Assembly: GCA_963796105.1 (NCBI GenBank)
Contig: CAWCKJ010000003.1
Coordinates: 736,001 to 800,000 of the forward strand
Reading direction: 5' to 3'
DNA length: 64,000 nucleotides
Origin: a candidate division FCPU426 bacterium
GTDB lineage: Bacteria; Oederibacteriota; Muellerivitia; Muellerivitales; Muellerivitaceae
Shown here: positions 34 to 46,600 of the stretch, piece after piece
Numbering within the stretch: the first letter of the stretch is position 1
Layout of the letters: every line of letters starts with the position of its first letter
Translations under genes and position numbers: made by a program
Notes under the pieces: model-generated
The model's database searches: none
Seen by the model: only the letters and a program-made list of their open reading frames with translations
Told to the model about the DNA's origin: nothing

Positions 34-2673
34 TCACTTGCGTCTCAAGTAAACGCCGTGTTGAAAAGCCATCGCATCCGCCAACCGACGTTGGAATTGA
101 CCAGAATATCCAATAAAGAAATACTTTGGTGCGGCGGCATAGTCCGAACTATTTACCTCACAACGCAACATTGAATATCGAAGTGTATCGCCCCCAGCGT
201 TGTAAACCAAATCCACCAGCCCATCAAATTCCTGTTGCTTCAGGGGAACTGATATTAGGCCCCGCAACTCACGCTCTCTTAGACTGACATCGTAAATAAA
301 CTGACCTTCTGCCTGGTCCCTAGTCCAAAGGTCATATGGTTTACCCGCATCGTCTTTGTTAATTGTCTTAGGATGAATTTTGTGCCCATAGCCATTGTTC
401 GCATTCCCTTTCTTGTCGGCAAGTGGTGTGTTGAGCTGACCCCCGTATTCGTTGTAAAGACAAAACATCCCATTTCTAATAACACAACCTTCCCAGTTCT
501 TGATCCAATCCTGCGCCGCCCCACTGGTAAACAACATATCCACCGGCCATCTTCCACCTGCGAAAAGATCGCCCTTTAGCATCTCCCCTTCCCTCGGTGC
601 CGTCAGCTCAATGCTTTCGTCGCCAAAGTCGTTTCCTGTGGGGTCGGTCTTGTCGGTCGGATCGTTGGCGAAACCGGCGTACTTGTTGAGGGTCAGCGGG
701 TCTTGCGGATCGCCCTCGTAGCTGTCCATGCCCATAAACCGGCCCTCGTTGGGGTTGTACCACCTGGCCCTGAGATAAACGAAACCCGTTTCCGGTTCTG
801 TGTATTCCCCTTGGAATCCCGGCCCAAGGCTGGTCGTGCCCGCCCGCCTCAAGACGTTCCCAAACGCGTCATAATCCAGGGCGTCCGTCACGTTCCCACC
901 GTCGTCAAGCACCAGACGGATATTGCCGGTGGCGTCGGCGACAAAGTAATTCGCCACCCAACTCACGCCCGTATTCTGCACTTGGTACAGCGGCCCCTTG
1001 AGGCCGTACACGTAGCGCCTCACCACCTGGCCGTTGACGAGTTCCTCCGACACCTGCGGGTTGGCCGTCAAGTTGTGCCTGTCCCACAAGTAATTAGTGG
1101 TCACCCCGGTCAGGTTGTTGGTCTTCTGTACCCGTAATCCGTCGCCATCATAAAGATAGGAAACATCCACGCCCGTTCCCGTCACGTGAGTCAACTGGTT
1201 CAAGGTGTTGTAGGTGTAGGTAAAGCCCCTTCCGTCGCTGGTCTGGTTTCCGTTCTGGTCAAAGTTAAATGTCGGCTTCAACTGATCCGCCGCGTCATAG
1301 GCCCCGTTGAAAGTCTGCGTGGGGATCGCCACCACGCTGGAAATGCGCTGTTGCCTGTTGCCCACCGGATCGTAGGAATAACCCACCATGCCCGTGTTGC
1401 CCGCCGGGTCTGTAACGATCTGCTCGCTCGTGAGCCGGTACAAGTCATCCGGCGTCCAGGTTACCGCCCTGCCGCTGGCTTCCTGCACCCCGATACGGTT
1501 CCCGGCCAGTCCCAGGGTGTAGGTATAACTGCCCACGACACCCGCCCCGCTTGTCACCGTCACCGCAGTCACCCGGTTCAAGGCGTCCACCCCGTAGGTC
1601 AGGGTCACGGCATCGGGCAGAACCTGGCTCACCAAATTGCCTACGCTGTCATAGCTCACGAGGGCCGTCTTTGCCCCGTCCAGGATGGTGGCCGGTCGGT
1701 TCAAAGCATCAAGCTGATACGTCAAGTTGTTGCCGTTCGTGTTCGAGGAAGAAACCGTATTCACCTGGCCGTTTCCATAATTGGTATAGGTCAAGGAACC
1801 CCACCCATAAGGGCCGAACTGGCCTGTCATGTGGTCCCTCTCGTCGTGGTTGAAGGTCGTGGCCCCGGAAGCGTCGTTCATCACCACCCGCATCTGGGCG
1901 TTGTCGTAGGTGTAACCAAGCGCCACTCCCGAAGCGGAAACCCCCGTCAAGTGGTCGCTGGTATCGTACCCGTATGTGAAGGCGTTCCCCGCGAAGTCGG
2001 TCTTGTTGAGCAAATTGCCCACGCCGTCATAGTTGGTGTAATTTTCCGTGCGGCCATCTGGTAAATGCCGCGTCGTGCGGCGGTTCATGATGTTCCAGGT
2101 GTACGAGGTTGAGTGGGTGTTCGCGTCCACCTGCGTCAGCTTGTTCCCCACCGCATCGAAAGTTCCATCCGTCCTGAAGGTGCCCAGGCTCGAAATCTGC
2201 CTCGTCTCCGTGAGCCTGCCCTGTCCGTCCAACGTGAACTCCGTGCGCTTGCTGGCCTGATCCACCGTGGCCGTGGTTCTCCCGTCGTTGTCGTACTCCG
2301 TGGTCTCGTAGGTTCCATCCGGGTAATCCACCCGCGTCGGGCGGTTCATGTTGTCGTAAGTTTCGTTGGTGATCTGGAAACGCCCATCCACGCTCACCGT
2401 CTTCTCGTTTCCATTCTCGTCGTAGGTGTAATCCGTCTCCTGCTGGTTGGAGGTGCCATAACCCGTGATGACCGAGATTTTCCTCCCCGCGTCGTCATAC
2501 CGGGTCACGGTTACCTTTCCGTTTTCATCCGTCACCGCCGACGGTCGCCCCTGCGCGTCCGGTTGGGTCGTCACCCGGCTTCCATCCTGGTAGCTGACCG
2601 CCGTGACAAAACCCGCCGCATTGTAGGTGGTGATGGTGGTGCGGCCTCCCCGGTCGGTCACTGTCGCGGGCCG
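34..2673 (-). pseudogene. RHS/YD-repeat toxin, 3' fragment (RHS core + GH24 lysozyme-like C-terminal tip), split by IS21
   Basis: Many YD repeats; RHS core end 'YLRARWYNPNEGRFMGMDS...NKYAGFANDPTDKTDPTG'; tip with WEG...GYGH...QQEFDGLVDLVYNAG...RR resembling phage-type lysozyme. Joins 5445-7630 in frame after IS removal. Confidence 0.85.
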
Positions 2674-2679
2674 TGTCAT

Positions 2680-2775
2680 TGGCCACGAGCTTTAACCCCC
2701 TAGCTGGCCAAGCACTTTGACCCCACCTCTGGCCAGTCACTTTGACCCCCTGTCTGGCCACCGACTTTGACCCCC
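2680..2775 (+). repeat. IS21 left-end transposase-binding repeats (4 copies, 25-bp period)
   Basis: TGGCCA-N4/5-CTTTRACCCC at 2680, 2705, 2730 and 2755; related inverted copies at the right end. Confidence 0.85.
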
Positions 2776-2836
2776 TTGCCAAGGGCCTCTCTAACCGTCA
2801 TTCCTTTCTTTTTTCACTTCATGTGAGGAGAACGGC

Positions 2837-4393
2837 ATGACCCGACAAGGGAGGCAGAGCGACATGACGACTATTCGTGAGATTTTGAGGACTTACCAGG
2901 CCTTGGGCGGGTTCAAACCCACTGCCCGGGCCCTGGGATGCAATAAGCACACGGTCAAGCAATACGTGCGTTGGGCGAAAGAACATGGCTTTCTCCAAGG
3001 GGAACTTTCCCTGGAAAAGGATTTGGCGAAGGCTTGGGAAGACGGCGAAAAATCCACGCCCGTTCCCGCTCATGCCTTGGAGGCCCTCAAGGGAATCATC
3101 CAAGAATGGTTGAAGGAAGATTTCACCTTGATTCGCATCCAGGAGATGCTTCAAGAGCGGCACGGGTGGAAGGGGAGTTACTCGACCCTGAAGAGGTATA
3201 CGGAGCCTTTTCGCAATGAGAAACCCGCCTACGTGAGGCTGGAGGTTGCGCCCGGCGAGGAGGCCCAAGTGGATTTCGGGCTTTTGGGCCGCTTGTGGGA
3301 CGAGACGCGTGGCAAGCAAGCCAAGGCCTGGGTTTTCGTGATGACCCTTTCCCATTCCCGGCATATGTACGCCGAGATTGTATTCGCACAGGACGTGAGA
3401 ACCTGGATCGCCTGCCACCGCCGGGCTTTCGAGTTCTTCAATTCAGTCCCTAAAAAAATCGTAATCGATAACCTGAAAAGCGCCATCGTCAAGGCGGCCC
3501 TCTATGATCCCTTGGCCAACCGTACCTACGTGGAATGCGCCAACCATTACGGCTTCATCATCTCCCCTTGCCGCGTCGCCACTCCACGCCACAAGGGTAA
3601 AGTTGAACGCGGCGTGCCCTATGTCCGTAATTCCTTCTTCAAGGGTCGTTCCTTCCAGGGCCGCACCGATGCCAACCATCAACTCCGCGATTGGGTGATG
3701 AACAAGGCAGGTTTACGGGATCATGGCACCACCCGGCTTCAACCCTTGGCCGTCTTCCAGAGCGTGGAACAGAAGGCCCTTTTGCCCCTGCCTACCGCGG
3801 CTTACCATCCAACTTTCTTCAAAGAAGCCACTCTGCACCCCGATTGCCACGTAGTCGTGGAAGGTTCCTATTACTCGGCTCCCTACCGTCTTCGGGGCCA
3901 AAAACTACTGGCCCAATTAACCGACACCACCGTTGATATATTTCTCAAACACGAATGCGTGGCTTCCCACGCCAAGGCCACACGCAAGGGAACCTGGCGC
4001 ACCAACCCGGGCCACTATCCCCCTGAAAAAGCGGTCTTCTTGGAACGAACCCCACAATGGTGCCTCAAACAGGCCCAGGCCATTGGACCTAATACCCATC
4101 AATTAATCCAACTCCTGCTGGAACACTCCCACCCCCTGGACCACCTGCGCAAAGCCCAGGGCATTCTGCGCTTGAGGGAAAAGTACCTGCCTTCCCGTCT
4201 GGAGGCAGCCTGTCTAAGGGCCCTCCATTTCGGAAACTACACGTACCAATCCATCAAAAACATCCTTCAAAAGAACCTCGATCAAAACCCGTTGGACCCG
4301 CCGTCGGATCCTTCACTCAAACCCCAGTCGTCTTTCGATTTCGCCCGGCCCGCGGAGGATTTCCTCCGTGCCTTGGCTCTGGATAAAAATTGA
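2837..4393 (+). CDS. istA: IS21 DDE transposase
   Basis: N-terminal HTH, 'PGEEAQVDFG', 'DNLKSAI', 'KGKVERGV' motifs; 518 aa. Confidence 0.95.
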   Translation: MTRQGRQSDMTTIREILRTYQALGGFKPTARALGCNKHTVKQYVRWAKEHGFLQGELSLEKDLAKAWEDGEKSTPVPAHALEALKGIIQEWLKEDFTLIRIQEMLQERHGWKGSYSTLKRYTEPFRNEKPAYVRLEVAPGEEAQVDFGLLGRLWDETRGKQAKAWVFVMTLSHSRHMYAEIVFAQDVRTWIACHRRAFEFFNSVPKKIVIDNLKSAIVKAALYDPLANRTYVECANHYGFIISPCRVATPRHKGKVERGVPYVRNSFFKGRSFQGRTDANHQLRDWVMNKAGLRDHGTTRLQPLAVFQSVEQKALLPLPTAAYHPTFFKEATLHPDCHVVVEGSYYSAPYRLRGQKLLAQLTDTTVDIFLKHECVASHAKATRKGTWRTNPGHYPPEKAVFLERTPQWCLKQAQAIGPNTHQLIQLLLEHSHPLDHLRKAQGILRLREKYLPSRLEAACLRALHFGNYTYQSIKNILQKNLDQNPLDPPSDPSLKPQSSFDFARPAEDFLRALALDKN

Positions 4394-4406
4394 GGAGGAA
4401 ACATAT

Positions 4407-5186
4407 ATGGAAAATAAACATCAGTTGGAGCCGCACCTGAGAAGGTTAAAACTCGCAGGTATGTTGGAGACGCTGGAAATCCGAAACCAGCAGGCCATTG
4501 AATCCCAGATCGGTTATATGGATTTCCTGGGCCAGTTGCTGTTGGATGAGCTGGAGCGCCGCCAAGTGGGCCAACTCCAAAGAAGGCTGAAAAAGGCGGG
4601 CTTCTCAACCCATATGACTCTAACGGGGTTCGATTTCGCTTTCAACCCGGCCATCAACCGGCAACAAATCCTGGATTTGGGTACTTGTTCTTTCGTGGAG
4701 CGAAAAGAGAACCTATTTTTCATCGGTCCCTCAGGTGTGGGCAAAACCCATTTGGCCTGCGCTTTGGCCCATGAAGTCTGCCGCAAGGGTTATGAGGTAC
4801 TCTTTATCAAGACCTCGCATGCGGCCCAACGATTAGCGGCCTCGCGCGGGGACGGTACCTGGGAAAACCGATTCGCATCCTTCCTGAAACCCGACCTCTT
4901 GATCCTGGACGACTGGGGTCTCAAGCCCTTCGACACCAAGGTCGCCGAGGATTTTTACGACATCATCTGTGAGCGTTATGAAAAGGGCTCCTTGATTTTT
5001 ACCACCAACCGCAGTCTGCGGGAGTGGCCGGAGCTTTTCGGCGACGCCCTCCTAGCCTCGGCTGCCATGGACCGCCTGGTCCACCATGCCACTGCCGTCG
5101 TCATTCAGGGCCCTTCCTTTCGGACCCGTTCCATGCGCGAAGAAATGAAAAAAGAACACAGCAGGGAAAAAGAGGCAAAACTATGA
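4407..5186 (+). CDS. istB: IS21 helper AAA+ ATPase
   Basis: Walker A GPSGVGKT, Walker B LLILDDWG, 'AAMDRLVHHA'; ATG 4407 preceded by GAGGAGG. Confidence 0.95.
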   Translation: MENKHQLEPHLRRLKLAGMLETLEIRNQQAIESQIGYMDFLGQLLLDELERRQVGQLQRRLKKAGFSTHMTLTGFDFAFNPAINRQQILDLGTCSFVERKENLFFIGPSGVGKTHLACALAHEVCRKGYEVLFIKTSHAAQRLAASRGDGTWENRFASFLKPDLLILDDWGLKPFDTKVAEDFYDIICERYEKGSLIFTTNRSLREWPELFGDALLASAAMDRLVHHATAVVIQGPSFRTRSMREEMKKEHSREKEAKL

Positions 5187-5444
5187 GAAACCCATCGTTC
5201 GATGCTGTCTTATTCGTGCAATCTTGCGCCTATTGGTTACGGGATTTGCGCGGGACTTCGTATCATCCAATGTTGGGGAAGCAAAACGCATCTTGTGAAA
5301 GGAGTTTGATGGGTCTAAATTAATCTAAAAAAAAGGCCCCGCAAGGCAGGGGTCGAAGTCCCCGAAACAGGCACCCCTCGAAGTGCCCAAAAGAGGGGGG
5401 GCAAAGTAGGCGGCCAGGGGGGTCAAAGTGACTGGCCAGTGACA

Positions 5445-7630
5445 GGCCGCCCATCCGCGTCGTAACCAGTGATTTGACTCGTGTTGTCGAAATTGTACTG
5501 GATGGTGGCCGCCTCACCCCTGGCGTTGTAGAAAGTGCTCGTCTGGCGGCTGTTCTGGTCCTGGGTTCCAATCATGTGCCCTGAACTGTCATAGGTCGTC
5601 TGGCTGTTCGTTCCGTCGGGATAGATGGTTTCTACCAAGCGGTTGGAAAGGTCGTATTGATAAACGGTGGTCTCCATCCCCGCGCCGGAAGTCTTCGCCT
5701 CGGTCAGCCGGTTCCCGTTGGAGTCGTAGGTATATGTTGTCACCAAAGCCGCACTCGACCCCGCCGCCGTGGTCTGGGTGAGCATATTGCCCGCACTGTC
5801 GTAAGTGCTTTGGGTCATGATTCCCGCCGGGTCGGTTACCAGTGTTTGGTTGCCATTGGCGTCGTAGCTGTAACTGTTGGGTGAGAATCCCGTGACCTGG
5901 CTCATGGACAAATTGCCCTTGGAATCATAGGTATTGGTGATCTGGATACCCCTGGGGGCGGTCAGGGTCAGCACATGGCCCTGGGCGTCATAGACATAGC
6001 TGGTGGTCAGGTTTTGGGTGGAACCGTTGGGATTGGGGATAGTCTCTTGGGTCAGCAACCGAGGATTGCGAAGCAGGCCCGTGGCCGGGTCAATGTCATG
6101 GTAAATGAAGGTGCTGGCCGACTGGTTGCCCGGTAAAAGCTCACTCGTCCGGTTGTCGTACTGGTCATAGGTGTACTTCGTCACGTTCCCCAAGGCGTCG
6201 GTTTGTTGAAGGATATTTCCCCTGTTGTCGTACTGGTATTGGATCGGCTGGCCCGTCCGGTCAGTCACCGCCTCACTGTTCGCGGCTAGGTTGTAAGAGT
6301 AGTGGATGACGTTCCCGAAAGCGTCCACGGAATCTATTTTGCGGCCCTGACTGTCATAATCCGTCCGTACCTGGACGTGCCCGGTCGGGTCTTTGATGGA
6401 GATGAGGCCGTGCGTGTTGTTGTAGGTATAAACAACCTTCTGCCCTTTGCTCGCCATGAATGGGTCTTGGAAAGTCGCTAGATCGTTCGACCCCCCATAC
6501 GTATAGGTGTAGGTGTAAGTGGGCGTGTACGTGCAATAGGGACATGGCGCCTGGGTATAGGTTTTGGTCGGGGTAAAAGTGACATGTGTGGCGCTGGGAT
6601 TGCAAAGATTGGATTGGGTGTAAATTCCAGTGCTCCCATTCTGGATAATTCCATCATTTTGCAGGCCGCCGGCGCCGCCCTGGACCGAGACTGAACCTGT
6701 AAAGGTGTTGCTTCCCAAAACGCAAAAAGCCACTAAACCGCCGCTGCCTCCCCCTCCAGCGGGGCAATCGAAGTCATCATTCCTTCCAGCGTTTCCACCT
6801 TGTCCGCCATTGGCCTTGACGGTTCCGGTGCCAGTGAGGTTATTCGCCTGGATATTGACCGCACCACCAGCGCCTCCGCCAGCGCCCGTCAAGTTATCCC
6901 CGTTATCGGAATAGCTTAAAGTCGAGGGTGACGCGCCATCCGTTCCGCTGAAATCCATCAACCCGTTAAAGTAAACGGTGCCGTTCAAGGCCTGCAGGAC
7001 AAGCGCCGCGCCTCCGTTACCGCCAGGTATCGAGATAAAACCAACCTGGTTAGGTTGACGCAGGTCTTGCCCGCAGGCGCCGCCACTCCCGGGTTGGGTA
7101 GGGTTCGCGGAATCGTCATAACCAATCCCGCCGCAACAGCTGGGATAATAAAGGCCGCCCGCGGGGGGATTATATTCATAGGTGCTTCCTCCCCCTGGGC
7201 CGGCATGACCCCCGCCGCCGCCGCCGGCTGCATCGGCATTTTCATTTGGCGTTCCATACCACCCCTTACCCGGCCCTTCCCCCAAACCATATGGGTCGGG
7301 TTGCGCGCAGCCTACGTAACCTAGGCCAGTCCCAATAATGGAACCCCCGGAATCAATCGTGACATCACCGGATAAGGTTAATGTCACGGCGCCGATAATA
7401 TAGAGCGTGCCTCCGGAATAAATATGGAGACTGCAGAGGTTGTATGTCCCAGGGTTCAAATAGGCGAATCCTGTGACGGACCAATTACAGGGCGGGTTGG
7501 AGAAGGTCGGGGTAGGCGTAAAGGTGATGGTTCGCGTGAGTGTGGGCGTAGAGGTGTTTTGTGCCAGGGCTTGGAGAGTCCCCAGCCAGGTAAAAAGCAG
7601 TAGGTAAAATATATTTCTGTTTGAACTCAT
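5445..7630 (-). pseudogene. RHS/YD-repeat toxin, 5' fragment (signal peptide, Thr-Pro segment, Gly-rich domain, YD repeats)
   Basis: Start ATG 7630 MSSNRNIFYLLLFTWLGTLQALA (Sec-like signal); GGGGGG/GGSGG-rich domain; YD repeats up to the IS21 boundary. Confidence 0.85.
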
Positions 7631-7796
7631 AGCATCACCTTCATATCCCCAGACGACTAATTCCAATTATATCCCAATTTATTCATGAAATATTTTATAA
7701 ACATGAGCCTAAACCGTGATAATCGCGCCTTTTTTCATCCTTTTGAAACTGGGTATCCGGCATCTGCGGACAGGACTACTTAGGAATAACAAAAGA

Positions 7797-7887
7797 AATT
7801 TTAAATTTTAAGTTTTGAATTCTAAGTTCCGGCTGGATTTCCGGATTTCGGAAATTCTCAATAATTCAACATTTAACATTCAAAATT
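7797..7887. repeat. AT-rich imperfect inverted repeat (heptamer-based hairpin element), copy 1
   Basis: Arms 7797-7821 and 7863-7887 are complementary at 21/25 positions; a similar element lies at 28900-28993. Confidence 0.6.
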
Positions 7888-7914
7888 AAGAATTGCAGTT
7901 GAAGTGTGGGTCGG

Positions 7915-8440
7915 GAAGTTCCCAGGTTCCCGGCCAGTTCCCGGGTTCCAGGCTGGTTCCAGGAGTTCCAGAGTTCCAGGTTTCCCGGATTACAAGGTTC
8001 CAGGCCGGTTCCAGGAGTTCCAGAGTTCCAGGTTTTCCGGATTACAAGGTTCCAGGCCGGTTCCAGGAGTTCCAGAGTTCCAGGTTTTCCGGATCACAAG
8101 GTTCCAGGCCAGTTCCAGAAGTTCCAGAGTTCCAAGTTTCCCGAATTACAAGGTTCCAGGCCAGTTCCAGGAGTTCCAGAGTTCCAGGTTTCCCGGATTA
8201 CAAGGTTCCAGGCCGGTTCCAGGAGTTCCAGAGTTCCAGGGTTCCCGGATTACGAGGTTCCAGGCCAGTTCCAGAAGTTCCAGAGTTCCAGGTTTCCCAG
8301 GTACCAAGGTTCCAGGCCAGTTCCAGAAGTTCCAGAGTTCCAGGTTTTCCGGATCACAAGGTTCCAGGCCAGTTCCAGGAGTTCCAGAGTTCCAGGTTTC
8401 CGGGATTACAAGGTTCCAGGCCAGTTCCGGGGTTCCAGGC
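7915..8440. repeat. Tandem array, 9 full copies of a 52-bp unit plus partial flanks
   Basis: Unit GTTCCAGGAGTTCCAGAGTTCCAGGTTTCCCGGATTACAAGGTTCCAGGCCR starts at 7956, 8008, 8060, 8112, 8164, 8216, 8268, 8320 and 8372. Confidence 0.95.
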
Positions 8441-8535
8441 CTGTATCCCGAAGCTTAATGCGTAGGGAGGGCCAGTTCTCGGGTTCCGGCGGATGTTCTT
8501 AGGCAACCCGCCATGCCGGTAGGCGACCCCCGCCA

Positions 8536-9060
8536 CCTGCGGGCAGGACCCCAAAACCTGCGGGCAGGTCTACCGCCACCTGCGGGCAGGAGCCCCGACA
8601 CCTGCGGGCAGGACCACCAGAACATGCGGGCAGGACTCCCGGATTCTGCTCCTAGGACTCCCAGATCCTGCTCCTAGGACTCTCGGAACCTACTCCTAGG
8701 ACTTCCTGAACCTGCTCCTAGAACTCTCGGATTCTGCTCCTAGGACTCCGGAAACCTGCTCTTAGGACCCCGAGAATCTGCTCCTAGGACTCCGGGAACC
8801 TGTTCCTAGGACACCGAGAATCTGCTCCTAGGACACCGGCACCTGCTCCTAGGACTCCAGAAACCTGCTCTTAGGACACCGAGAATCTGCTCCTAGGACA
8901 CCGGCATCTGCTCTTAGGACTCCCAGAACCTGCTCCTAGGACTCCAGAAACCTGCTCTTAGGACCCCGAGAATCTGCTCCTAGAACTCTCGGAACCTGCT
9001 CCTAGAACTCGTGGCTTCTGCGGGCAGGATTACAGTCATCTGCGGAAAGGGCCACCGGAT
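8536..9060. repeat. Tandem array, ~24 copies of a 21-22-bp unit with conserved core
   Basis: Core CCTGCGGGCAGG (8536-8623 and 9017) or YCTGCTCYTAGRAC (17 copies, 8645-8995); period almost always 22 bp. Confidence 0.9.
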
Positions 9061-9174
9061 CTGCAAATTGGAGACTCAACCCATACGGGTAGAGGGCCAA
9101 TATGGGTAATTTTAAAAGGGGGAGAAAAAAAGGGCCTGAATTACGTTTGTTGAAAGAACGGAAGTGGATTTACC

Positions 9175-9435
9175 CACCAATCAACCACACCTGCCGTGAG
9201 CCCACACGGCGAACGGCAAGATTTGGTTGTACCAACTGCCATAAGCAGTTGGTACAAGTTGATTGGTGACGGTTGGTAATGGCTTGCAAATGGCCTTACG
9301 AATAGCTTTCCATAAACCATTTGTGGTGTCGGGCGAATTACCCGACCAACTGGAATGCAATTGGCATGCGGGAAGTCCAAAGGTGGGCGTTGATTGGAAA
9401 ATGGCTCAATAGCCTAAAGTGACGAATGATGGCCA
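9175..9435. ncRNA. Candidate structured RNA element of unknown family
   Basis: Nested perfect stems: 9175-9185/9258-9268 (11 bp), 9227-9239/9245-9257 (13 bp), 9193-9198/9205-9210, 9328-9333/9341-9346, 9308-9312/9351-9355. No family recognised. Confidence 0.4.
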
Positions 9436-9457
9436 GACCCCATTGTTTCTTTTCACC

Positions 9458-12088
9458 TCAACGATTGTTAGTCACCAGGAACTTCCCCATTCCCAAGACC
9501 TGTGTCCCTTGCTGGATCACATAATAATAAACACCCGAGGATGTCCGGGCACCAAATAGGTTGCGACCATCCCATTGGGTTATTCCACCGTTTTCATGAA
9601 GAATCCTTACCAGTTCCCCAGAAACCGTGTAAAAAGAAACCCTTGAGCCTTGCGGCATACAACCGACCTTTAAAGTGCCGTTCTTGGCATATTGAGGATT
9701 AAAAGGATCGGGCCAAATGCGAATTTGACAAATGGGCGTTGGAGACGGCGTAATGGTGGGTGTCATGGAAGGGGTGGGGGTTGCTGTCGGAAAAACAAAT
9801 TTCGATACGTACATATATTCCGGCGCGGGACCAAGGGTAGTTTTATAAACTCCGGCCGTTATTGTAAAGTCAGAATCATAGGTTCCCCCTCCCACGTAAA
9901 CGGCTCCCGAACCATCTAACGCGATCTGCGCTCCATCATCCTCGATATCACCGGATGCCGTACCACCCCAATAAGTGGAATAGATTAAATTCCCGGATGT
10001 ATTGAATAGGGACCAAAAGTTGGAACGCAAAGAGCCGCCCCAGGAGGCTTGATAAGCTCCAGGAGTGGTTGGGAAATTAGAAGAAGCGGTCGACCCCGAC
10101 ACGTAAGCATTTCCTAAACCATCCACCGCTATGCCGAGTCCCTCGTCCCCTAAATACATGATGCCGGCGCCATTTCCTCCGAGGTAAGTGGAATATATTA
10201 GTGCTTTTCCAGCCGGGTTTAATTTCGCGACAAAAGCGTTACCATACCCTGAGGCTGGCTTAGATTGATAAACGCCTGGAGTCACTGGAAAATTAGCCGA
10301 ATTGGCCTGACCCGTTAAATAAGCGTTGCCAAAAGAATCCGCCGCGATAGCGTATCCCACATCCCCTAAATCCGTGGAATTTCCCGATCCTCCCAAGAAG
10401 GTGCTATAAACCAAGGCCGTTCCTGTTGGATTTAATTTTGTGACAAAAACATTTCCTTTCGCGGAGCCCAGCGTGGTTTGATAAACGCCAGGGGTCACCG
10501 GGAAATCAGTCGAGGTGGACTGACCCGTTAAATAAGCGTTGCCAAAAGAATCCACCGCGATAGCGTATCCCACATCGCCAATAGCAACGGAATTTCCCGA
10601 TCCTCCCAAGAAGGTGCTATAGACCAAGGCCGTTCCTGTCGGATTTAATTTTGTGACAAAAGCATTTCCATTGATGGAGCCCGGCGTAGTTTGAAATGCG
10701 CCTGGGGTTACGGGAAAATCATTAGAGCTGGTCGTTCCTATTATGTACGCATTTTCAGAACTATCCACCCCGATGCCGAACCCCTCATCATAGATGCTTC
10801 CTCCCAGGTAGGTGCTATACACTAAGTCCGTCCCTGATGAATTTAATTTCGCGGCAAAAGCGTTTCCATTCGTGGTGCCCGACGTGGATTGAAAAGCGCC
10901 CGCGGAGGTCGGAAAATCGCTGGATCCGGTCAGGCCTGTAATATACGCATTGCCTGAAGCATCCACCGCGATGGCGTTAGGATCGTCATAATTGCTCCCG
11001 CCCAAATAGGTGGCATAGACTAGGGCAGTCCCGGTTGGATTTAGTTTGAAGATCAAGACATTTTGAGGCCCATTTGCGGCCGGTTGAAAAGCGCCAGGAG
11101 TCGTTATAAATCCCCCTTCGTAGGGTTCCAACAGGTAAGCATTTCCGGCTGTATCCACCGCCAAGGCGCTAAACTCGTTGTCGTAGTTGGCGACGTCCGC
11201 GCCCACATAGGTGGAATAAACCAATGTCGGGTCAATCACCAAGGACCTGGTGGAGTCGTATCCTTTCACCTCGAACCCCACTTCCCCATTTCCGTTTTGA
11301 ACGAATCTTCCGCCGATATCCTCCTTCCCGGACCAATTTTCCTGGTACAAGGCCGGCAGGCTTAATTCCAATGACATCTTTCCCACTCTCATCCCTAAGT
11401 TACCGCTAACCATTTTCCGAAGGTTTTCCGCACCCGCGAATTTCAACCGGATATCCTTTGGATTTCCACCAGGCTTCACCACGAAGTCATATTCCAATTT
11501 TCCGTTGGCTCCGTAATAGATTAGGTCGATGTGGGGATATATTTCCTTGAATCTTACCCGCGCGTATTGGCACAAGTTCATGCGCCAATGGGAGGTATTT
11601 TTACCAATCAAATAATTGCTTTTGCCAGGCAGTTTCTCCAGTCCCTCGGCCTCGCAACGGGGATTGGCTCCCTTCAATTTCATCCAAAGATACTCGGGTT
11701 TGGCAAGAATGGTTTTTCTCGGGACTTTCAATTTTGAGCGCCTGAGCGGTTTTTGAAAGCACCAAACAGCCTGAGTGGGGGTCAGGAAAAGGCTGTAGCC
11801 CTTTCCCCGGGTCATAAACCTAACCGATGGGTCGGTTTGGCCCTCGTTTTTCTCGAAGCTCATCGGCAGGCGCCCGTAGGCCCGCGCAATTTTCTTTTGA
11901 GCTTGGACATCGGGTTTTGAATGGGCAGCTTTTTGAGGAGAAGCCTTATTGACGGCCTTGGTTCCACACATGGATAAAGCAAAAACGCCCGTAGGATGGG
12001 CAAGGAGCAAGGACAGCAGGAACCGCAAAACCATTTGGAAACGTTTTGGGACGGAGATTAAAAAAAAGGGAACCACGTCTTGCGGCAT
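9458..12088 (-). CDS. Secreted SBBP (beta-propeller) repeat protein with Thr-Pro linker and T9SS/FlgD-like C-terminal domain
   Basis: 'LPMSFEKNEGQ...LVIDPTLVYSTY' N-terminal domain; repeats 'AIAVDxxGNAYxTG.T.S.DFPxT.GAFQ...FVTKLNPTGTALVYSTFLGG'; C-terminal WDGRN...SGVYYY. True start may be slightly downstream. Confidence 0.85.
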   Translation of the reverse strand: MPQDVVPFFLISVPKRFQMVLRFLLSLLLAHPTGVFALSMCGTKAVNKASPQKAAHSKPDVQAQKKIARAYGRLPMSFEKNEGQTDPSVRFMTRGKGYSLFLTPTQAVWCFQKPLRRSKLKVPRKTILAKPEYLWMKLKGANPRCEAEGLEKLPGKSNYLIGKNTSHWRMNLCQYARVRFKEIYPHIDLIYYGANGKLEYDFVVKPGGNPKDIRLKFAGAENLRKMVSGNLGMRVGKMSLELSLPALYQENWSGKEDIGGRFVQNGNGEVGFEVKGYDSTRSLVIDPTLVYSTYVGADVANYDNEFSALAVDTAGNAYLLEPYEGGFITTPGAFQPAANGPQNVLIFKLNPTGTALVYATYLGGSNYDDPNAIAVDASGNAYITGLTGSSDFPTSAGAFQSTSGTTNGNAFAAKLNSSGTDLVYSTYLGGSIYDEGFGIGVDSSENAYIIGTTSSNDFPVTPGAFQTTPGSINGNAFVTKLNPTGTALVYSTFLGGSGNSVAIGDVGYAIAVDSFGNAYLTGQSTSTDFPVTPGVYQTTLGSAKGNVFVTKLNPTGTALVYSTFLGGSGNSTDLGDVGYAIAADSFGNAYLTGQANSANFPVTPGVYQSKPASGYGNAFVAKLNPAGKALIYSTYLGGNGAGIMYLGDEGLGIAVDGLGNAYVSGSTASSNFPTTPGAYQASWGGSLRSNFWSLFNTSGNLIYSTYWGGTASGDIEDDGAQIALDGSGAVYVGGGTYDSDFTITAGVYKTTLGPAPEYMYVSKFVFPTATPTPSMTPTITPSPTPICQIRIWPDPFNPQYAKNGTLKVGCMPQGSRVSFYTVSGELVRILHENGGITQWDGRNLFGARTSSGVYYYVIQQGTQVLGMGKFLVTNNR

Positions 12089-12883: not shown

Positions 12884-13533
12884 TGGAAACCTCGGTTTAT
12901 TGTTATTGGGTAAATAATATCATATACCTGATAAATCGGGGCTGGCCGGGCCCCCTCAAATGGTGTTTCCCTTTACCTTGCGGCCGTTTATAGGTTCTAA
13001 ATGAAGGACTGTTTTGAGTTTTCGCGGGATTTCTAAACTCCAGGCATCTTCATCGATTATTCATTCTTCATTGTTCATTATTCATTTTAAATTGTTGTTC
13101 AATTGCCGCCATTGTGTCCGATCCGCGAAACACCGCCAAGATAGGTATTAATCGGTCCCAATTATTGTGCAATTTTTCCGCGCATGAGACAACCAGGCGC
13201 GCCTCCCGCCTTTCAAATCCTCGTTCCAAACTACATTTAATGGAAAGAAACCCTGAAATTTTTTTGCCTCCGCCTAAAATCGTTTCTCGATTTTTTTACA
13301 TAAATTTTATCTTCTTACTATTTGTTTTCCCGCGGGGATCGTGTATACGGTTGCACGACTCAAGTTGTTTTTTTCGCGCGGGACGCATTTTATAAAATTC
13401 AGGGGAGGCGCTTGTGCGTTTGAAAAATATTTTTTCCGGTTTGAATCCGTTGGAAATCCCGAACTGCCCGAAATCCGCCGCCCAGGCTTTCCCGTTTTTT
13501 TACAGGACGGGTAAGAATCCCAAAAACTTGAAA

Positions 13534-16500
13534 ATGTTTTTCCTGCCGCTCTTGGCTTTGCTCCTGTTCCCCCTCGCCTCCGTCCACGCGGCGGGAAGCC
13601 AAACGCTCCCGGGTCATGTTCCCGCGCGGGCTAAGGCCGAAAACCTGGTGTCGGACCTTCCCGATACCCAAACATTGAATCTCGCCATCGGCCTCCCCTT
13701 GCGCAACGCAGGCAATCTCCAAGACCTCCTGAGGGAAATTTATGACCGCAAAAGCCCGAAATACCGCCATTATTTGACCCCGGACCAATTCACGGCCCAG
13801 TTCGGCCCCACCGAAGAGGATTACAACAAAGTCGTTGATTTCGCGAAGGCCCACCACTTGACCGTGACTAAGACCTACACCAACCGGATGCTGGTGGACG
13901 TGAGCGGGACAGCCTTGGACATTTCACGCGCCTTCAACGTGAGGCTCCACAATTACAAAAGGCAGGACGGAAGTTTGTTTTATTCCCCTGACGCGGAACC
14001 CTCCGCCGATCTCGACGTTCCCCTCTCGCACGTGTCGGGCCTGGACAACTTCAAACTGCCGATGAACCACTTGGGAAACAAGTTGGGGAAATCCAAGCAA
14101 GGATCCCCCGCCCCGGCCGCAGGCGCCAAGAAATCCAATTACGGAACGGGCCCCAATTCGGGGGTGCCTCCTTACGGCCCCTCCTACGTCGGGACCGACT
14201 TCCGCAACGCCTACCTCGGCTCTTCCTTCCCCCCAACTTCCAACGGCCAGGGACAAACCATCGGGCTGTTCGAGCCGGAGGGGTATTACACGGGTGACGT
14301 GGCCTCCTACCAATCCTCTTTCCTTTCCGCCTTTACGATTCCCAATCCGGTCCTGATTTCGGCCGAGCCGGGCGCGGTGGCCCAGGACCAGGGTGCGCCC
14401 GGGGCGGGCAACGGCGAGGTGGCCCTGGATATCGACATGGCGATGGCCATGGCGCCGGGGGCCCAGGTCGTGGTTTACGAGGGCTATAACAACGGCCTTT
14501 ACGCTTACGATACCGTCTGCGACGACATCCTGAGCGAGATGGCCTACCCGACCCAGGGCGAAACCGTGCCCAACCAGGTGAGCTGCTCCTGGTACGACTT
14601 CGGGGACGCCGCCACGGACAGCCTGATGATGCAGTTGGCCTCGGAAGGAGTGGCATTTTTCATGGCCGCCGGGGATGAGGGCGCCTACGTCTACCCGGAT
14701 GTCTTTTACTCCCCATACATTCCCCCGCCCTACGACCAAGGGGCGGTTTCCTTCATGACCTTCGTCGGGGGCACTGAGCTTTCCACGAGCGGAGCCGGCA
14801 ACGGCCTCGGCACCTACAACAACGAGATCGTTTGGAACGACCCCATCGAGCTAAACGGCGTCGGGGGCCCTGCCGCTGGCGGCGGGGGAATCTGCGACCA
14901 GGTCCTCATCCCATATTGGCAGGTGGGTTTCATCAACGCCCAGAACAACGGCGACCCCTCCCACCGGAACATGCCGGACGTGGCCTTGATCGCGGATTAC
15001 CTTTTCATTTACTCCGACAACGGCGTCCCGCAATACGTCATGGACGGGACCAGCGCTTCCGCTCCCCTTTGGGCCGGCTTTTGGTCCCTCGCCAACCAGC
15101 AGGCCGGGAACACCCCCTGCAACCCGATCGGTTTTCCGAACCCGTCGCTTTACTCCATCGCTTCCAATCCAGTCCAGTACGCGGCTGATTTCAACGACAT
15201 CACCGTGGGGACCAACAACGACCCCGTTTACGCCTCCGGCAATTTCAACCAATTCGCGGCCGTCAAAGGTTATGACCTGGCCACGGGCCTGGGCAGTTTC
15301 AAGGCCAACTTGATCAATGACCTGGTCTCAATGGCCTGCGTCGTCTCATCCTACACCCCCACGAGCAGCCCCACCGCCACCTCGACCGTCACGCCCACAC
15401 TTACACCAACGCAGACCCAGACCTATACGGCGACCCTCTCGCCCACCATTACCCCCACCCCGACCGCGACCGGGACTTTTACGCTTACTTCGACCCCCAC
15501 GGCCTGCTGTTTTTCCGATTCGATCTCTTGGGGACCCAGCGGCGCGGGCTACAGTTTCGGCTCCTTGTACGACATTGCCGTAGATAACAGCAATAACTGC
15601 AACGGCGGCCCCTGCCTGTACATGACTGACACAAGCAACAATTATATTTACAAGTTTGACACATCCGGAAATTTCATTCCCCCGGCATGGGGCGGGACAG
15701 GATCTACCCCCGGGTTATTGAACAGCCCCTACGGTATCGCCGTCAACGCGGCAGGGACTTCCATTTACGTGGCAGACCAGGGCAACAACCGTGTCGAGGT
15801 CTTCAACTCATCAGGAGGTTACAGCACATCCTGGGGCGTCAATGGGATCGCCCTAGGCCAATTCGCCGGCCTGTTTGGCGTTGCGGTGGACCCGAACAAC
15901 GGCAATGTTTACGCCGTGGATGAGGGCGGAACCGGGCGTGTGCAGGAATTCAACTACAACGCCTCCTTGACCATCACCCAATGGTACTCGAGCAATGCCC
16001 ACGGGGCCTGTGTCAGCCCCACTGATTATGTCTATGTCGCCAATGGCAATAATGTCATCAAATATACTTCCGGCGGGGTTTCCATCACGCAATGGCCGGC
16101 CACCGGGTATAATTTGTCATCCGATGGCGCCGATTATATCTACGTTGCCAGCTTCAATAGCGGCAATGTCTCAAAATACGATCCCATCGGCAACCTCATT
16201 TGCCAGATCGCCGCCGGAGGGCAAAATGGGCATCTTGGAAATCCTTATGGCGCGGCTGTAGGCTCCACCGGGACGGTTTACGTAAACACGACAACCTTGG
16301 TGGGTGAATTCCTGCCATGCGGACCGACACCCACCGCGGTGCCGACGAACCTGGCGACCAACACCATCACCAATACCCCGACTTTGACCGCCACTGGTAC
16401 CTCGACGCCGACTTCCACCCGAACACCGACAAATACGCCGACTTCGACCAGGACGCCCACGCCGACAAGAACGCCCACGAACACCCCCACCATCACCCTG

Positions 16501-17262
16501 ACCCGGACTTGGACCAACACCCCGACCATCACCCCGACCAGGACGAGGACCAATACGCCGACGGTGACCCGCACCCCGACGAATACGCCCACGAGGACCA
16601 ACACTCCCACCATCACCCTGACCAGGACGAGGACCAACACGCCCACCATTACCCCGACCAGGACGTGGACCAATACGCCGACGGTGACCCGCACCCCGAC
16701 GAATACGCCCACGAGGACCAACACCCCCACCATCACCCCGACCAGGACGAGGACCAATACGCCGACGGTGACCCGTACTCCGACCATCACCCCGACGCGC
16801 ACCCACACCTCGACACCCACGCCCACCCGGACCCCGACGCCGACACGCACGCCGACCCCGACCGCGACACCGACGAACACGCCGATCGGCGGATCAGCGG
16901 CACCGGCGAACGCGGCCCAGCAGAAAAATATCCGGGGCTTTACCCCGTCGCCGACGCCTTCAACCGGCGGAACCCTTCTTTCGGCCTTGCCCGCCCCGAG
17001 CCTTTCCCAGGACGGACAGCCGATCCAATTCAGGGTCAAGCTGGCCAAAGCCGCGGCCATCCACCTTTCGTTGTATGACCTGTTGGGCGAGAAGATTTAC
17101 GAGACACAGGCCCTTGGCGGCGCCGGGACCAACCGCCTGCTTTGGAACCTGCAAAACCTCGATAACCAGGAGGTGGCGAGCGGGGTGTTTGTTTACTTAA
17201 TCCAAATCAACGACGGGACCAGCCTGTCCCGCAAGACCGGCAAGGTCGCCGTCATCCGCTGA
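13534..17262 (+). CDS. Secreted S53 (sedolisin/kumamolisin) peptidase with pro-domain, NHL repeats, Thr-Pro/Arg linker and T9SS/FlgD-like C-terminal domain
   Basis: Pro-domain '[16 protein letters not shown]'; catalytic motifs 'GEVALDID', 'AAGDEG', '[11 protein letters not shown]', '[10 protein letters not shown]'; NHL 'PYGIAVN...[11 protein letters not shown]'. Start uncertain (13414-13534). Confidence 0.9.
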
Positions 17263-43608: not shown

Positions 43609-46600
43609 CTACTTTAGAAGAAGGACCCTTTTGATTTTCCTGTCATAGGGCTCCACCAGGTAGAAAAGATAGACTCCGCTCGCGCACTCCACCCCGAATT
43701 TGTTCCTGCCGTCCCAATGGTAAGAAGCCGCGTAAGGGGCGTCCAAATGTTGTTCATCCAGGGTTTGCACGTGTTCCCCGGCGGAGTTGTAAATCTTCAG
43801 GGAATAGGCCCCCGGGAACTGGCAATAGGAAACAAAGACCGATACTGGACCGTTGACCGGATAAAACAAATTATAGGAGACGTAGAACTCGTCGCACTTG
43901 GGAAGCGGGGTGATTGTCGGCGACAATGTCGGAGTGCCCGAAGGCGTGGAAGTGAAAGTCTCGGTGGGCGTCATCGTTTCCGTTGGGGTCGAGGTGAACG
44001 TGGGAGTCATGGAATTCGTAAAGGTCGGGGTGATCGTTGGAGTAGGCGTGGGAGTGCTGGTGTTGGTTGGGGTCAAAGTCGAGGTAGGAGTTGAGGTAGG
44101 CGTATTGGTGAAGGTCTCAGTAGGTGTCATCGTATTCGTCGGTGTATTGGTTGGAGTGGGTGTATTCGTAGCGGTGTAAGTGGCTGTAGGAGTAAAAGTC
44201 CCGGTCGCCGTATTGGTCGGGGTGGGCGTATTCGTAGCGGTGTAGGTGTCGGTGGGGGTAAAGGTATTCGTGGAAGTGTTGGTTTCGGTTGAAGTAAATG
44301 TCTGGGTCGGCGTATTCGTCGGGGTGGGAGTAGGCGTTGCCGTCGAAGTCCAGGTATTCGTCGGGGTATTTGTCTCCGTGGGAGTGGAAGTCTGGGTCGG
44401 AGTGATCGTAGGAGTATTCGTTGGGGACTGGGTTCCAGTCGATGTATCGGTTGGGGTAGGGCTGTTGGTTGCCGTAGGAGTGGATGTGGGTGTGAAGGTC
44501 GATGTGGGTGTTTGGGTTGGCGTGGGAGTTGGCGTCCAAGTGGACGTAGAAGTCGGGGTTGGGGTCGAAGTGGCGGTAGGAGTCCAAGTTACGGTGTTAG
44601 TCGGGGTAAGTGTTGGGGTGTTCGTTGAAGTCGGGCTATTCGTGGGTGTGGACGTGAAAGTCATGGTGGGTGTGTTCGTCGGAGTGGGGGTCAGAGTGGG
44701 TGTTGGGGTGATCGTCGGGGTGTTCGTGGGGGATTGAGTCCCGGTTGATGTGTTCGCCGCAGTTGGGGTGATCGTCGGCGTGGGCGTCAGTGTGGGTGTC
44801 GGAGTGGTCGTAGGAGTAAGGGTCGGAGTGGCAGTGGGAGTATTAGTAGGGGTGAAAGTGGGAGTAGATGTCAGGGTCGTCGTCGGAGTGGGCGTCAAAG
44901 TGGTGGTGGGGGTCCTGGTCAAGGTATTCGTCGGGGTAGGAGTCGTGGTCGTTGTCGGGGTCGGCGTGGACGTGTTCGTGGGGGTCATTGTCGGGGTATT
45001 CGTCGGCGTATTAGTCGGCGTTATTGTCGGGGTCGGCGTTGGGGTGGATGTGGGCGTCATTGTGGGCGTGTTGGTGGGCGTAGGAGTTGGGGTAATGGTC
45101 GGAGTAGGTGTCGGGGTGGGTGTAAGCGTCTTGGTAGGCGTAATGGTTGGAGTACTTGTAGGTGACTGGGTTCCAGTAGGCGTGTTGGTCGGCGTGGGGG
45201 TGATGGTCGGAGTATTGGTCGGGGTAGGAGTCGGGGTCGTCGTGGGAGTGGGTGAGGGTGTAGGAGTTGGCGTTCTTGTTGGGGTGTTCGTCGGAGTAGG
45301 AGTGAGTGTGGTGGTCGGCGTGGGAGTCGGGGTATTCGTAGGGGTTGGGGTGGGTGTCCTGGTTGGAGTAGGCGTTGGCGTCAGGGTGGATGTGGAAGTG
45401 TTCGTGGGCGTGGGAGTCGGGGTATTGGTGGGTGTTGGGGTGGGTGTGGTAGACGGCGTAGGAGTCGGGGTATTAGTGGGGGTGAGAGTGGGTGTCCTCG
45501 TCGGAGTAGGAGTAGATGTGGTTGTGGGGGTTGGAGTCGGCGTATTAGTAGGCGTAGGGGTGGGTGTCCTGGTGGGAGTAGGCGTTGTGGTTGTCGTGGG
45601 GGTCGATGTGGAAGTGTTAGTGGGCGTGAGAGTAGGTGTATTGGTGGGTGTTGGTGTGGGTGTGGTTGTCGGCGTCGAGGTGTTAGTAGAGGTCGGCGTT
45701 CTCGTGGGTGTGTTGGTGGGCGTTGGCGTTGGGGTGATCGTCGGAGTGGGTGTCGAAGTGGGCGTGGGAGTCCTGGTCGGGGTTATAGTTGGGGTATTCG
45801 TGGGCGACTGGGTCCCCGTAGGCGTGTTGGTCGGCGTGGGGGTGATGGTCGGAGTATTGGTCGGGGTAGGAGTCGGGGTCGTCGTAGGAGTGGATGTGGG
45901 CGTAGGAGTTGGTGTTCTTGTTGGGGTGTTCGACGGAGTAGGGGTGGGTGTGGTGGTCGGCGTGGGAGTCGGGGTATTGGTGGGTGTTGGGGTGGGAGTC
46001 CTGGTTGGGGTAGGAGTTGGGGTCGGTGTTGGCGTATTAGTGGACGTCGGGGTAGGCGTATTCGTCGGGGTTGGAGTGGGTGTGGTCGTCGGGGTCGGTG
46101 TCGGAGTTCTGGTCGGAGTCGGCGTGGGTGAAGGGGTGGGTGTCGGTGTCGTGGTCGGAGTAGGTGAGGGTGTCAGGGTCGGTGTAGGGGTTGGCGTCCG
46201 GGTCGGAGTCGGCGTGGGTGAAGGGGTGGGGGTCGGTGTCGTAGTCGGAGTAGGTGAGGGTGTCAGAGTCGGTGTAGGGGTGGACGTCCGGGTCGGCGTA
46301 GGTGTGGGAGAAGGGGTAGGAGTTGGAGTATTAGTGGGTGTTGGAGAAGGTGTATTGGTTGGTGTAAGCGTGGGGGTTGGGGTCCGGGTCGGTGTAGGTG
46401 TGGGAGAAGGGGTGGGAGTTGGAGTCACTGTCAGAGTGGGGGTAGGTGAAGGAGTCGGGGTCGGTGTAGGGGTTGGCGTCCGAGTCGGTGTGGGGGTAGG
46501 GGTATTGGTCGGCGTTGAGGTTGGCGTATTTGTGGGCGTAGGAGTGGGTGTCGGGGTTCGGGTTGGTGTGGGGGTAGGGGTATTAGTGGGTGTTGGGGAA

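Follow-up and report, generated by a model that had tools for sequence, protein, structure and literature searches.

A non-coding interval beside an RHS gene in an Oederibacteriota genome is probably an island of dispersed repeats and not a toxin regulator

What is 1.8 kb of patterned non-coding DNA doing directly upstream of an RHS toxin gene? The question is raised by positions 7631-9457 of a 64,000-nt stretch from a candidate division FCPU426 bacterium (phylum Oederibacteriota, family Muellerivitaceae; assembly GCA_963796105.1, contig CAWCKJ010000003.1, positions 736,001 to 800,000), which is called the window here and corresponds to C3:736001-800000 of the 4.98-Mb source genome, G000, with C-numbers denoting its contigs. 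The original prediction saw in this interval either a dedicated non-coding RNA-plus-array system or a DNA platform by which the RHS toxin is controlled, and neither is borne out, as the same repeats are found beside unrelated genes genome-wide. Because the families recur in this way, the interval is likely to be selfish or structural repeat DNA and not a means of toxin control; it is probably a repeat island, in which at least five dispersed families of non-coding, self-propagating repeats have accreted.

The four patterned elements that had been described in the interval are all present within 7780-9448, as judged by Tandem Repeats Finder (TRF), by reading the units in register and by folding. 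Along the window the interval is made up as follows, with the last two features lying inside the structured segment:

7631..7779, no strand assigned: unique spacer of 149 bp just upstream of the RHS start, without a match in its own genome
7780..7916, plus strand: AT-rich palindromic dispersed element resembling a miniature inverted-repeat transposable element (MITE), delimited by blastn against its own genome
7917..8438, plus strand: 52-bp tandem array of 9.5 units, for which the TRF call spans 7944-8438
8439..8536, plus strand: junction piece of 86-98 bp, from blastn and the register listing
8537..9061, plus strand: phased 22-bp array of 24 units, read in register
9062..9164, plus strand: linker common to three or four of the six copies of the structured segment, from an alignment of the six
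9165..9448, plus strand: structured segment, a non-autonomous composite of ~284 bp, from copy comparison and folding
9175..9268, plus strand: three-way-junction (3WJ) element of ~90 nt, from folding, covariation and inverted repeats
9415..9448, plus strand: solo right terminal inverted repeat (TIR) of a ~1.05-kb Y1 insertion sequence (IS), from its similarity to the TIRs of full copies

A blastn search of the whole interval against its own genome gave 67 matches, with the 149-bp spacer the sole part lacking a second copy. The 52-bp array is found at 17 places, the 22-bp array with CTGCGGGCAGGA heads (22a) at 11, that with CTGCTCCTAGGA heads (22b) at 4, the junction piece at 4 (3 besides the window) and the structured segment at 6 full or partial places, or 15 when short matches are included. 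The AT-rich element has 30 matches including itself (about 15-30 places), and 8 of its 29 other copies lie within 100 bp of an array block. Genome-wide TRF also recovers non-coding arrays with other heads, CTACCGGCATG, CTGTTCCCGG and ATACTGGGTTG among them, and about eight unrelated head families are present; under the filter adopted here the TRF output amounts to 164 non-coding array blocks, which cover 41.7 kb and make up 0.84% of the genome and 5.3% of its intergenic DNA. The statement that nothing comparable occurs elsewhere is therefore roughly correct for the window, but false for the genome.

When each element is followed by blastn through G000, the pieces recur separately at many intergenic sites with unrelated neighbours. 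For comparison 60 relatives were also searched (30 from the same family and 30 from 14 other families of the phylum). Independent occurrence of this kind had been named in the original prediction as evidence against a dedicated system, and since the elements do occur apart, beside unrelated genes, that is largely what is found. It had also been asked whether the pieces keep company, and they do so repeatedly, with composites at C4:150.7-153.1 kb, C2:367.1-369.0 kb, C4:1265.5-1266.0 kb and C3:734.2-734.9 kb. Three composites have junction sequence in common with the window, which marks them as paralogous copies of one block made up of a 22-bp array and the structured segment.

The genes beside these repeats give the same answer. 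At 24 other loci that hold the families, the nearest open reading frame (ORF) of at least 90 aa on each side was taken and scanned against Pfam. None of the 48 flanking genes is an RHS gene and 19 encode a transposase or recombinase (IS21 11, IS1595 3, Y1 2, IS4/5 1, IS3 1 and a serine recombinase 1), with the remainder a mixture that includes a flavin reductase, a deacetylase, a peroxidase, Usp, an autotransporter, HsdR and cas2. The spacers that bear arrays lie between divergent genes in 24 cases, tandem genes in 76 and convergent genes in 21, against 25.3, 77.7 and 18.0 expected from the share of base pairs (p = 0.74), and as the spacer classes are filled in proportion to their length the arrays have no preference for promoter regions.

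The arrays are regular in their build. Each 22-bp unit consists of a conserved, palindrome-containing head of 12 nt and a variable tail of 9-10 nt, and of the 24 units in the window 5 carry the head CTGCGGGCAGGA, 17 carry CTGCTCCTAGGA and 2 belong either to the first type or to a degenerate version of it. Units headed by CTGCGGGCAGGA occupy 8537-8645 and occur once more at 9018, with those headed by CTGCTCCTAGGA at 8646-9017; TRF reports 22-bp arrays at 8525-8641 and 8632-9010. Among the 17 CTGCTCCTAGGA-type units the mean pairwise identity is 0.92 for heads and 0.56 for tails, and the dyads TCCTAGGA and CCTGC-GG-GCAGG lie within the heads. Each unit of the 52-bp array (52 bp x 9.5 copies with 92% matches) has four GTTCCAG(G/A) sub-motifs, and its 3' third varies more than the rest. 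The junction piece ends in a single unit with a CATGCCGGTAG head, which belongs to another array family, and the AT-rich element has a central GATTTCCG-N-CGGAAATC hairpin flanked by AT-rich inverted arms.

It had been thought that no credible protein gene runs over the arrays and this view stands, since neither 52 nor 22 is a multiple of three and the 52-bp array is spanned by ORFs in all three plus-strand frames, so that the arrays encode no periodic protein. The repeats are unlikely to be an artefact of assembly, because these families sit between unique flanks at many loci and because short independent read contigs cover 7813-7963 (1 difference) and 9027-9140 (0 differences), contigs that show only that these stretches exist; the array copy numbers are given as assembled.

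The arrays were also said not to be CRISPR, which is correct, as the locus has neither unique spacers nor cas genes. CRISPR repeats of ~24-48 bp are separated by unique spacers of similar length and adjoin cas genes, whereas the units here are of 22 bp with related tails, or of 52 bp and alike throughout, and the array is flanked by the RHS gene and a gene for a DUF7948/SBBP protein. A likeness to the ToxI arrays of type III toxin-antitoxin (TA) systems, RNA repeats transcribed together with the endoribonuclease gene that they precede, can be seen in a regular tandem array just upstream of a toxin gene, but the variable part is just 9-10 nt, the tails are interrelated, and the downstream gene encodes RHS repeats only and not a ToxN/AbiQ-type RNase, nor is such an RNase found among the 48 genes elsewhere. 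A true CRISPR array, with a 37-nt repeat and cas2 nearby, is present at C2:363299-367600, and a copy of the structured segment lies within ~70 nt of its repeat at the end away from cas2.

It is apparent that the arrays are young and specific to a species or genus. The 52-bp core occurs 66 times in G000 and in none of the 60 other genomes, including G001, a relative from the same genus. Adjacent 22a heads are found only in G000 (7) and G001 (9) among the 61 genomes, with the heads identical at 12 of 12 positions between the two and none of the 9 G001 tails equal to any G000 tail. G001 carries the 22-bp and AT-rich families (at least 10 matches for the latter) at other places and has no alignable RHS/SBBP locus. 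From these comparisons of core, head and tail it follows that the families have spread over many loci within a species or genus, with the head under constraint. The periods of the arrays cluster at 21-23, 42-44 and 52-53 bp, and in 44 of 83 blocks the period comes within 0.12 turn of an integral number of helical turns (10.5 bp each), compared with 23% for uniform periods, in a test that treats related arrays as independent. The dyads within the heads together with this helical phasing point to duplex DNA that is read by a protein on one face. A limited literature search found no description of phased head-tail arrays. In G016, which is of another genus, 3WJ copies at the loci L016 and L026 are flanked by the short head TTCCAGTAAAC at ~22 bp spacing, which suggests that arrays of the same phased build, each with a head of its own, are present throughout the family.

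Insertion sequences lie flush with the arrays far above chance. An IS21-family element in the window is one of 13 copies in G000 at 99.5-99.9% identity (megablast of 2600-5500) and has therefore been active recently, and 5 of the 13 are flush with or inside arrays. The Y1 IS is a ~1.05-kb element in which a 318-aa PF01797 Y1 (HUH) protein is encoded between 34-bp TIRs, present in G000 as 8 copies at 98% identity and four or five diverged lineages; 4 of 13 copies lie 0-3 bp from an array block and the array is one-sided in all three for which the flanks were read. The ends of IS21 carry internal repeats of their own (25-bp x 3.5 and 22-bp x 2.1). A further family, distinct from those of the window, consists of tandem 75-76-bp twin-hairpin units (8 copies, 100% identical) at C2:120575-121189 and C2:158387-158993, and one of these arrays is 88 bp from a diverged Y1 IS.

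The structured segment is itself a composite, of the 3WJ element and a solo end of the Y1 IS. The stretch 9165-9450 folds at -106.3 kcal/mol (z = -4.4; 0 of 200 shuffles as stable), and has perfect inverted repeats at 9175-9185/9258-9268, the outer helix of the 3WJ, and at 9227-9239/9245-9257, in a 13-bp hairpin that occupies 9227-9257. The six copies of the segment are 93-96% identical over a common core of ~210-270 nt, all six end in the Y1-IS TIR, and four carry within this TIR an extra hairpin, CACCAAGC-tgggg-GCTTGGTG. In the window 9415-9448 is 87-94% identical to the TIRs of full IS copies, in matches of 33-41 nt.

The full copies resemble the elements known as TIRtrons (TIRYT elements) in having a PF01797 protein between 34-bp TIRs in which GGGGTCAG fits the GGGGWSAS motif, a motif described for many such TIRs by Di Nocera et al. 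2013 (PMC3733652), who also report that TIRs themselves form small repeat families. The window stretch is a solo TIR and not a TIRtron, because it has one TIR only and no transposase gene; it also has one mismatch in the motif and is joined to unrelated structured DNA. G000 copies of the IS abut tandem arrays, and such an abutment does not appear in the passages of PMC3733652 that were consulted.

Several other identities for the structured element were considered. The elements had been expected to fit no catalogued family and Rfam agrees, with no relevant match at E <= 1 over 7000-10000, and over 9140-9460 at E <= 10 only chance matches to microRNAs and small RNAs that score 13.6-15.9 bits against cut-offs of 80-86. 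Searches found no tRNA or transfer-messenger RNA (tmRNA), and a group II intron domain or self-cleaving ribozyme was dropped on the silence of Rfam or on inspection only. An integron attC site, a lone imperfect hairpin with RYYYAAC / GTTRRRY boxes that follows promoterless cassettes in a single orientation, was rejected since conservation lies in internal loops and two adjacent hairpins and not in terminal boxes, with the outer helices varying freely between copies, a judgement made by eye from alignments without a search for an integron integrase.

The 3WJ is the part of the segment that reaches furthest, as 9175-9268 alone has a blastn match in other genera (14 of 30 family genomes, over ~65 nt). 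Besides the outer helix, which is present in many copies, and the 13-bp hairpin, it has a long arm with a helix ACACC/GGU(U)GU, an internal loop, a 6-bp helix, a tandem G-A, a 3-bp helix and the loop CACA(A/C), with loop and junction bases near-invariant. In an alignment of 31 copies from 14 genomes RNAalifold predicts 19 pairs, of which 15 have compensatory changes. When a further helix of 4 pairs is added 92.6% of cells are paired, against 24-45% in slid controls, and there are 87 double-change cells against 22.3 in shuffles, with 0 of 500 shuffles reaching 87. The variable pair of the added helix is C-G in 17 copies, A-U in 10, G-C in 2 and U-G in 2, by a crude parse of 40 of the 62 copies in G000. 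Those 62 full-length copies were found with a covariance model, which also detects the 3WJ in all 30 same-family genomes, spanning 17 genera, with 1-59 per genome among the matches listed, and in 0 of the 30 genomes from 14 other families of the phylum; viral contigs scanned with a pattern for it yielded no copy.

The 3WJ is mobile, because copies are nested in the loop of their own kind and inside array units. Five copies (C5:49032, C14:58958, C4:1334057, C4:1334350 and C14:4960) lie in the first-hairpin loop of another copy straight after CACAA, and others break into units of 42-/43-bp arrays. At two filled sites (2 of 7 resolved by an exact index) the excision of 71 nt or 68 nt recreates an array junction known from elsewhere, and the inserts there are flanked by the direct repeats ATA (3 nt) and ATGCC (5 nt). 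It was considered whether a Y1 (TIRYT) transposase could be the sole mobiliser, but the one Y1 family tested is present in 19 of the 30 genomes within the family and also in 21 of the 30 from outside it, so its distribution does not match that of the 3WJ and it is rejected in this role. Clustering of 204 ORFs that flank 3WJ copies gave groups of at most 4 members (SBBP/NHL, IS21 IstA, ORF6N-domain and Y1 groups among others) and no candidate autonomous element. Four paralogous ORFs of ~150-200 aa each adjoin a 3WJ (C12:176529-177134, C2:153339-153875, C3:536389-536841 and C4:428751-429290), with the 3WJ downstream and on the same strand in 3 of 4 and an ORF6N domain in the one that was scanned.

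The 3WJ may be set beside known kinds of small bacterial repeat. MITEs such as Correia and RUP are small non-autonomous elements with precise insertion and short flanking direct repeats, nested in other repeats; the 3WJ differs in having no terminal inverted repeats, in its flanking repeats of 3 nt and 5 nt at the two reconstructed sites, and in a structure conserved across 17 genera. The repetitive extragenic palindromes (REP) with their BIME and REPIN assemblies are short structured intergenic repeats in tens of copies, which may be single, dimeric or clustered, and their spread is attributed to a domesticated HUH Y1 transposase, RAYT or TnpA-REP (PMC3733652, PMC3116915). A REP is a homogeneous palindrome of 20-40 nt, whereas the 3WJ is branched, ~66-90 nt long, covaries heavily within a genome and has a consensus with no GTAG or CGTC tag. 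REPs have a cognate RAYT gene whose presence tracks them, and the one Y1 family tested here does not co-vary with the 3WJ. The phased arrays differ from REP clusters in being direct head-tail repeats without hairpins.

The orientation of the 3WJ provides a further comparison. The 39 chromosomal copies have no orientation bias (22 vs 17 by GC skew, 18 vs 21 by gene majority), whilst on the contigs C14 (103 kb) and C5 (56 kb), which have a lower G+C of 0.48, 23 of 23 copies lie on the strand opposite to the genes. C14 looks like a conjugative element from its genes for VirB4/TraG-like and coupling proteins, ParA/ParB, ArdC, RadC, integrases and many TA pairs; both contigs are conjugative-element-like, and UmuC and two integrases are also encoded on them. 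Frpo/ssi sequences, the single-strand promoters and priming signals of conjugative plasmids, are folded single-stranded DNA signals that occur several times per conjugative element with a fixed polarity to its genes (PMC11541004), and the polarity on C14 and C5 recalls this. Frpo is a long hairpin that mimics -35/-10 boxes, and none is evident in the 3WJ, whose chromosomal copies have no polarity; the resemblance may be treated as a lead, not a finding.

How such an island could arise can be put forward as a sequence of steps. Array units would reach new loci through an activity that recognises the head, and after arrival the arrays would grow locally by slippage or unequal exchange. The conserved heads of 11-12 bp are likely to be read on one helix face by that activity or by another DNA-binding protein. 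The arrays would then be tolerated landing pads on which the 3WJ, the TIRtron and IS21 pile up, with the 3WJ predicted to work as a folded single strand of DNA or RNA. A bolder form of the scheme has two parts, which are taken together: the 3WJ would represent a new class of elements active as single strands, being either a mobile module, family-wide and conserved in structure, that invades hairpin loops and array units, or a single-strand initiation signal co-opted by conjugative elements, and the arrays would be dedicated landing pads that channel the 3WJ, IS21 and the Y1 IS away from genes, a 'transposon trap' with a head-reading protein. This conjunction is speculative and rather doubtful.

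A number of points weigh against the repeat-island explanation. The gene calls behind the context statistics came from a crude ORF caller, and the phasing test takes as independent arrays that fall into only about eight head families. The conservation of heads in two species and the helical phasing would also be expected of a protein-binding array that benefits the host. Four or five composites keep order and strand, the structured segment being preceded by the AT-rich element or by arrays, and this constancy could point to a functional unit, though three of the composites are paralogous copies. The enrichment of the 3WJ near arrays is mild, with 13 of 62 copies within 300 bp of an array against 7.4 +/- 2.5 for random intergenic positions, and trials of one Y1 family and of neighbour-ORF clustering identified no mobilising enzyme. 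Finally the interval may act as RNA.

This last point has its fullest form in a single plus-strand non-coding transcription unit, antisense to both neighbours, in which transcription would start at the AT-rich element as promoter and run on through the 52-nt array, the 22-nt array and a structured RNA that contains the 3WJ, with a processing protein encoded elsewhere and a role as protein sponge or source of small RNAs. The pieces are co-stranded in the window and in the four composites listed above, and the structured element, which had been assumed to belong to the minus strand, folds better as the plus strand: the plus-strand form of the 3WJ is the better in 37 copies against 22 (Wilcoxon p = 0.007), and many of its pairs tolerate G-U (one of them reads UA in 15 cases and UG in 13). 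Four of the six segment copies also end in the CACCAAGC-tgggg-GCTTGGTG hairpin, but this terminal hairpin lies within the IS terminal repeat, the shared order is partly due to paralogous duplication, and a composite on C10 has mixed strands. A scan for consensus signals detected neither a sigma-70-type promoter within the AT-rich element nor a terminator where the plus-strand unit would end, with 1 promoter-like site against a mean of 2.1 in shuffled controls and 3 terminator-like sites against 3.6, and a search of sequencing runs matched no RNA run, just two DNA runs with 6-7% of sampled words. Head palindromes and periods that track the DNA helical repeat point to duplex DNA, and the array families are limited to one species or genus. 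A transcript of this kind is thus unlikely, though it fares no worse than any other alternative to a repeat island.

Slightly less can be said for arrays that benefit the host as phased sites for a nucleoid-associated, partition-type or regulatory protein, around which mobile elements merely collect. Iterons and plasmid centromere arrays such as sopC of F are direct repeats of ~20-43 bp, helix-phased, with a short and partly palindromic protein-binding core, and they occupy single loci by rep or par genes and serve one cognate protein. The arrays here share with them heads that are conserved and tails that are variable within and between species, dyad symmetry in the heads, and periods of 21-22, 42-43 and 52-53 bp, near 2, 4 and 5 helical turns. 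They differ in forming 164 blocks chromosome-wide with between-species turnover; some eight unrelated head families in one genome, a 52-bp family not found even in G001, and the want of a positional preference among spacer types all argue against a host function, no rep or par gene adjoins the window array, and no candidate binding protein was found. Such a role is accordingly judged improbable.

Very little credence can be given to the proposal that the interval serves the RHS toxin specifically, as its contingency or regulatory platform, which draws on the position of the module directly upstream of the RHS start and on a second 22-bp array plus structured segment downstream of the same cassette, but which is largely refuted by the genome-wide distribution, with no RHS gene among those beside the same families elsewhere, the RHS gene itself split by IS21, and the unique 149 bp at the start codon the likelier promoter region.

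The neighbourhood of the interval bears on this last alternative, and consists of the following:

34..2679, minus strand: 3' part of the RHS gene, with RHS repeats and a C-terminal phage-lysozyme domain (Pfam PF05593, 7.5e-41; PF00959, 2.6e-12)
2674..5444, plus strand: IS21-family insertion sequence with istA at 2837-4393 and istB at 4368-5186 (Pfam rve/Mu-transpos_C_2 and IstB_IS21)
5423..7630, minus strand: 5' part of the RHS gene, 735 aa, with its ATG at 7630 (Pfam PF05593, 5.6e-29)
9458..12088, minus strand: protein of 876 aa with DUF7948 and an SBBP beta-propeller (Pfam PF25778, 6.7e-56; PF06739, 2e-36)

By Pfam and megablast the IS21 insertion separates the 3' part of the RHS gene from its 5' part, and the promoter and leader of the gene would lie in the unique 149 bp at 7631-7779. 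Two direct copies of the 22-bp array plus structured segment bracket the split gene and a downstream ORF of 119 aa, one at C3:734216-734918, just beyond the left edge of the window, and the other at 8508-9457 of the window, with 86% identity over 707 nt; the bracketed stretch could mark a cassette that is swapped via recombination between the repeats. Tandem repeats are also present in coding DNA of the window, at 16426-16885 and 44077-46971, where the periods are multiples of three, the sequence is rich in Pro/Thr codons and the repeats lie within large ORFs, one of which encodes a kumamolisin/NHL protein of 1282 aa (13414-17262); these are unconnected to the non-coding arrays.

The analysis thus removes a tempting but unsupported toxin control system. 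In its place such gaps in this uncultured lineage are seen as islands that gather several small kinds of repeat together with three IS families. The 3WJ, for which Rfam holds no match, would be a small mobile element of a new kind or else a new signal that acts as a single strand, and the helix-phased arrays, which turn over between species and attract insertions, offer a tractable case in which to follow the spread of satellite DNA in bacteria and to ask whether it steers transposon landing.

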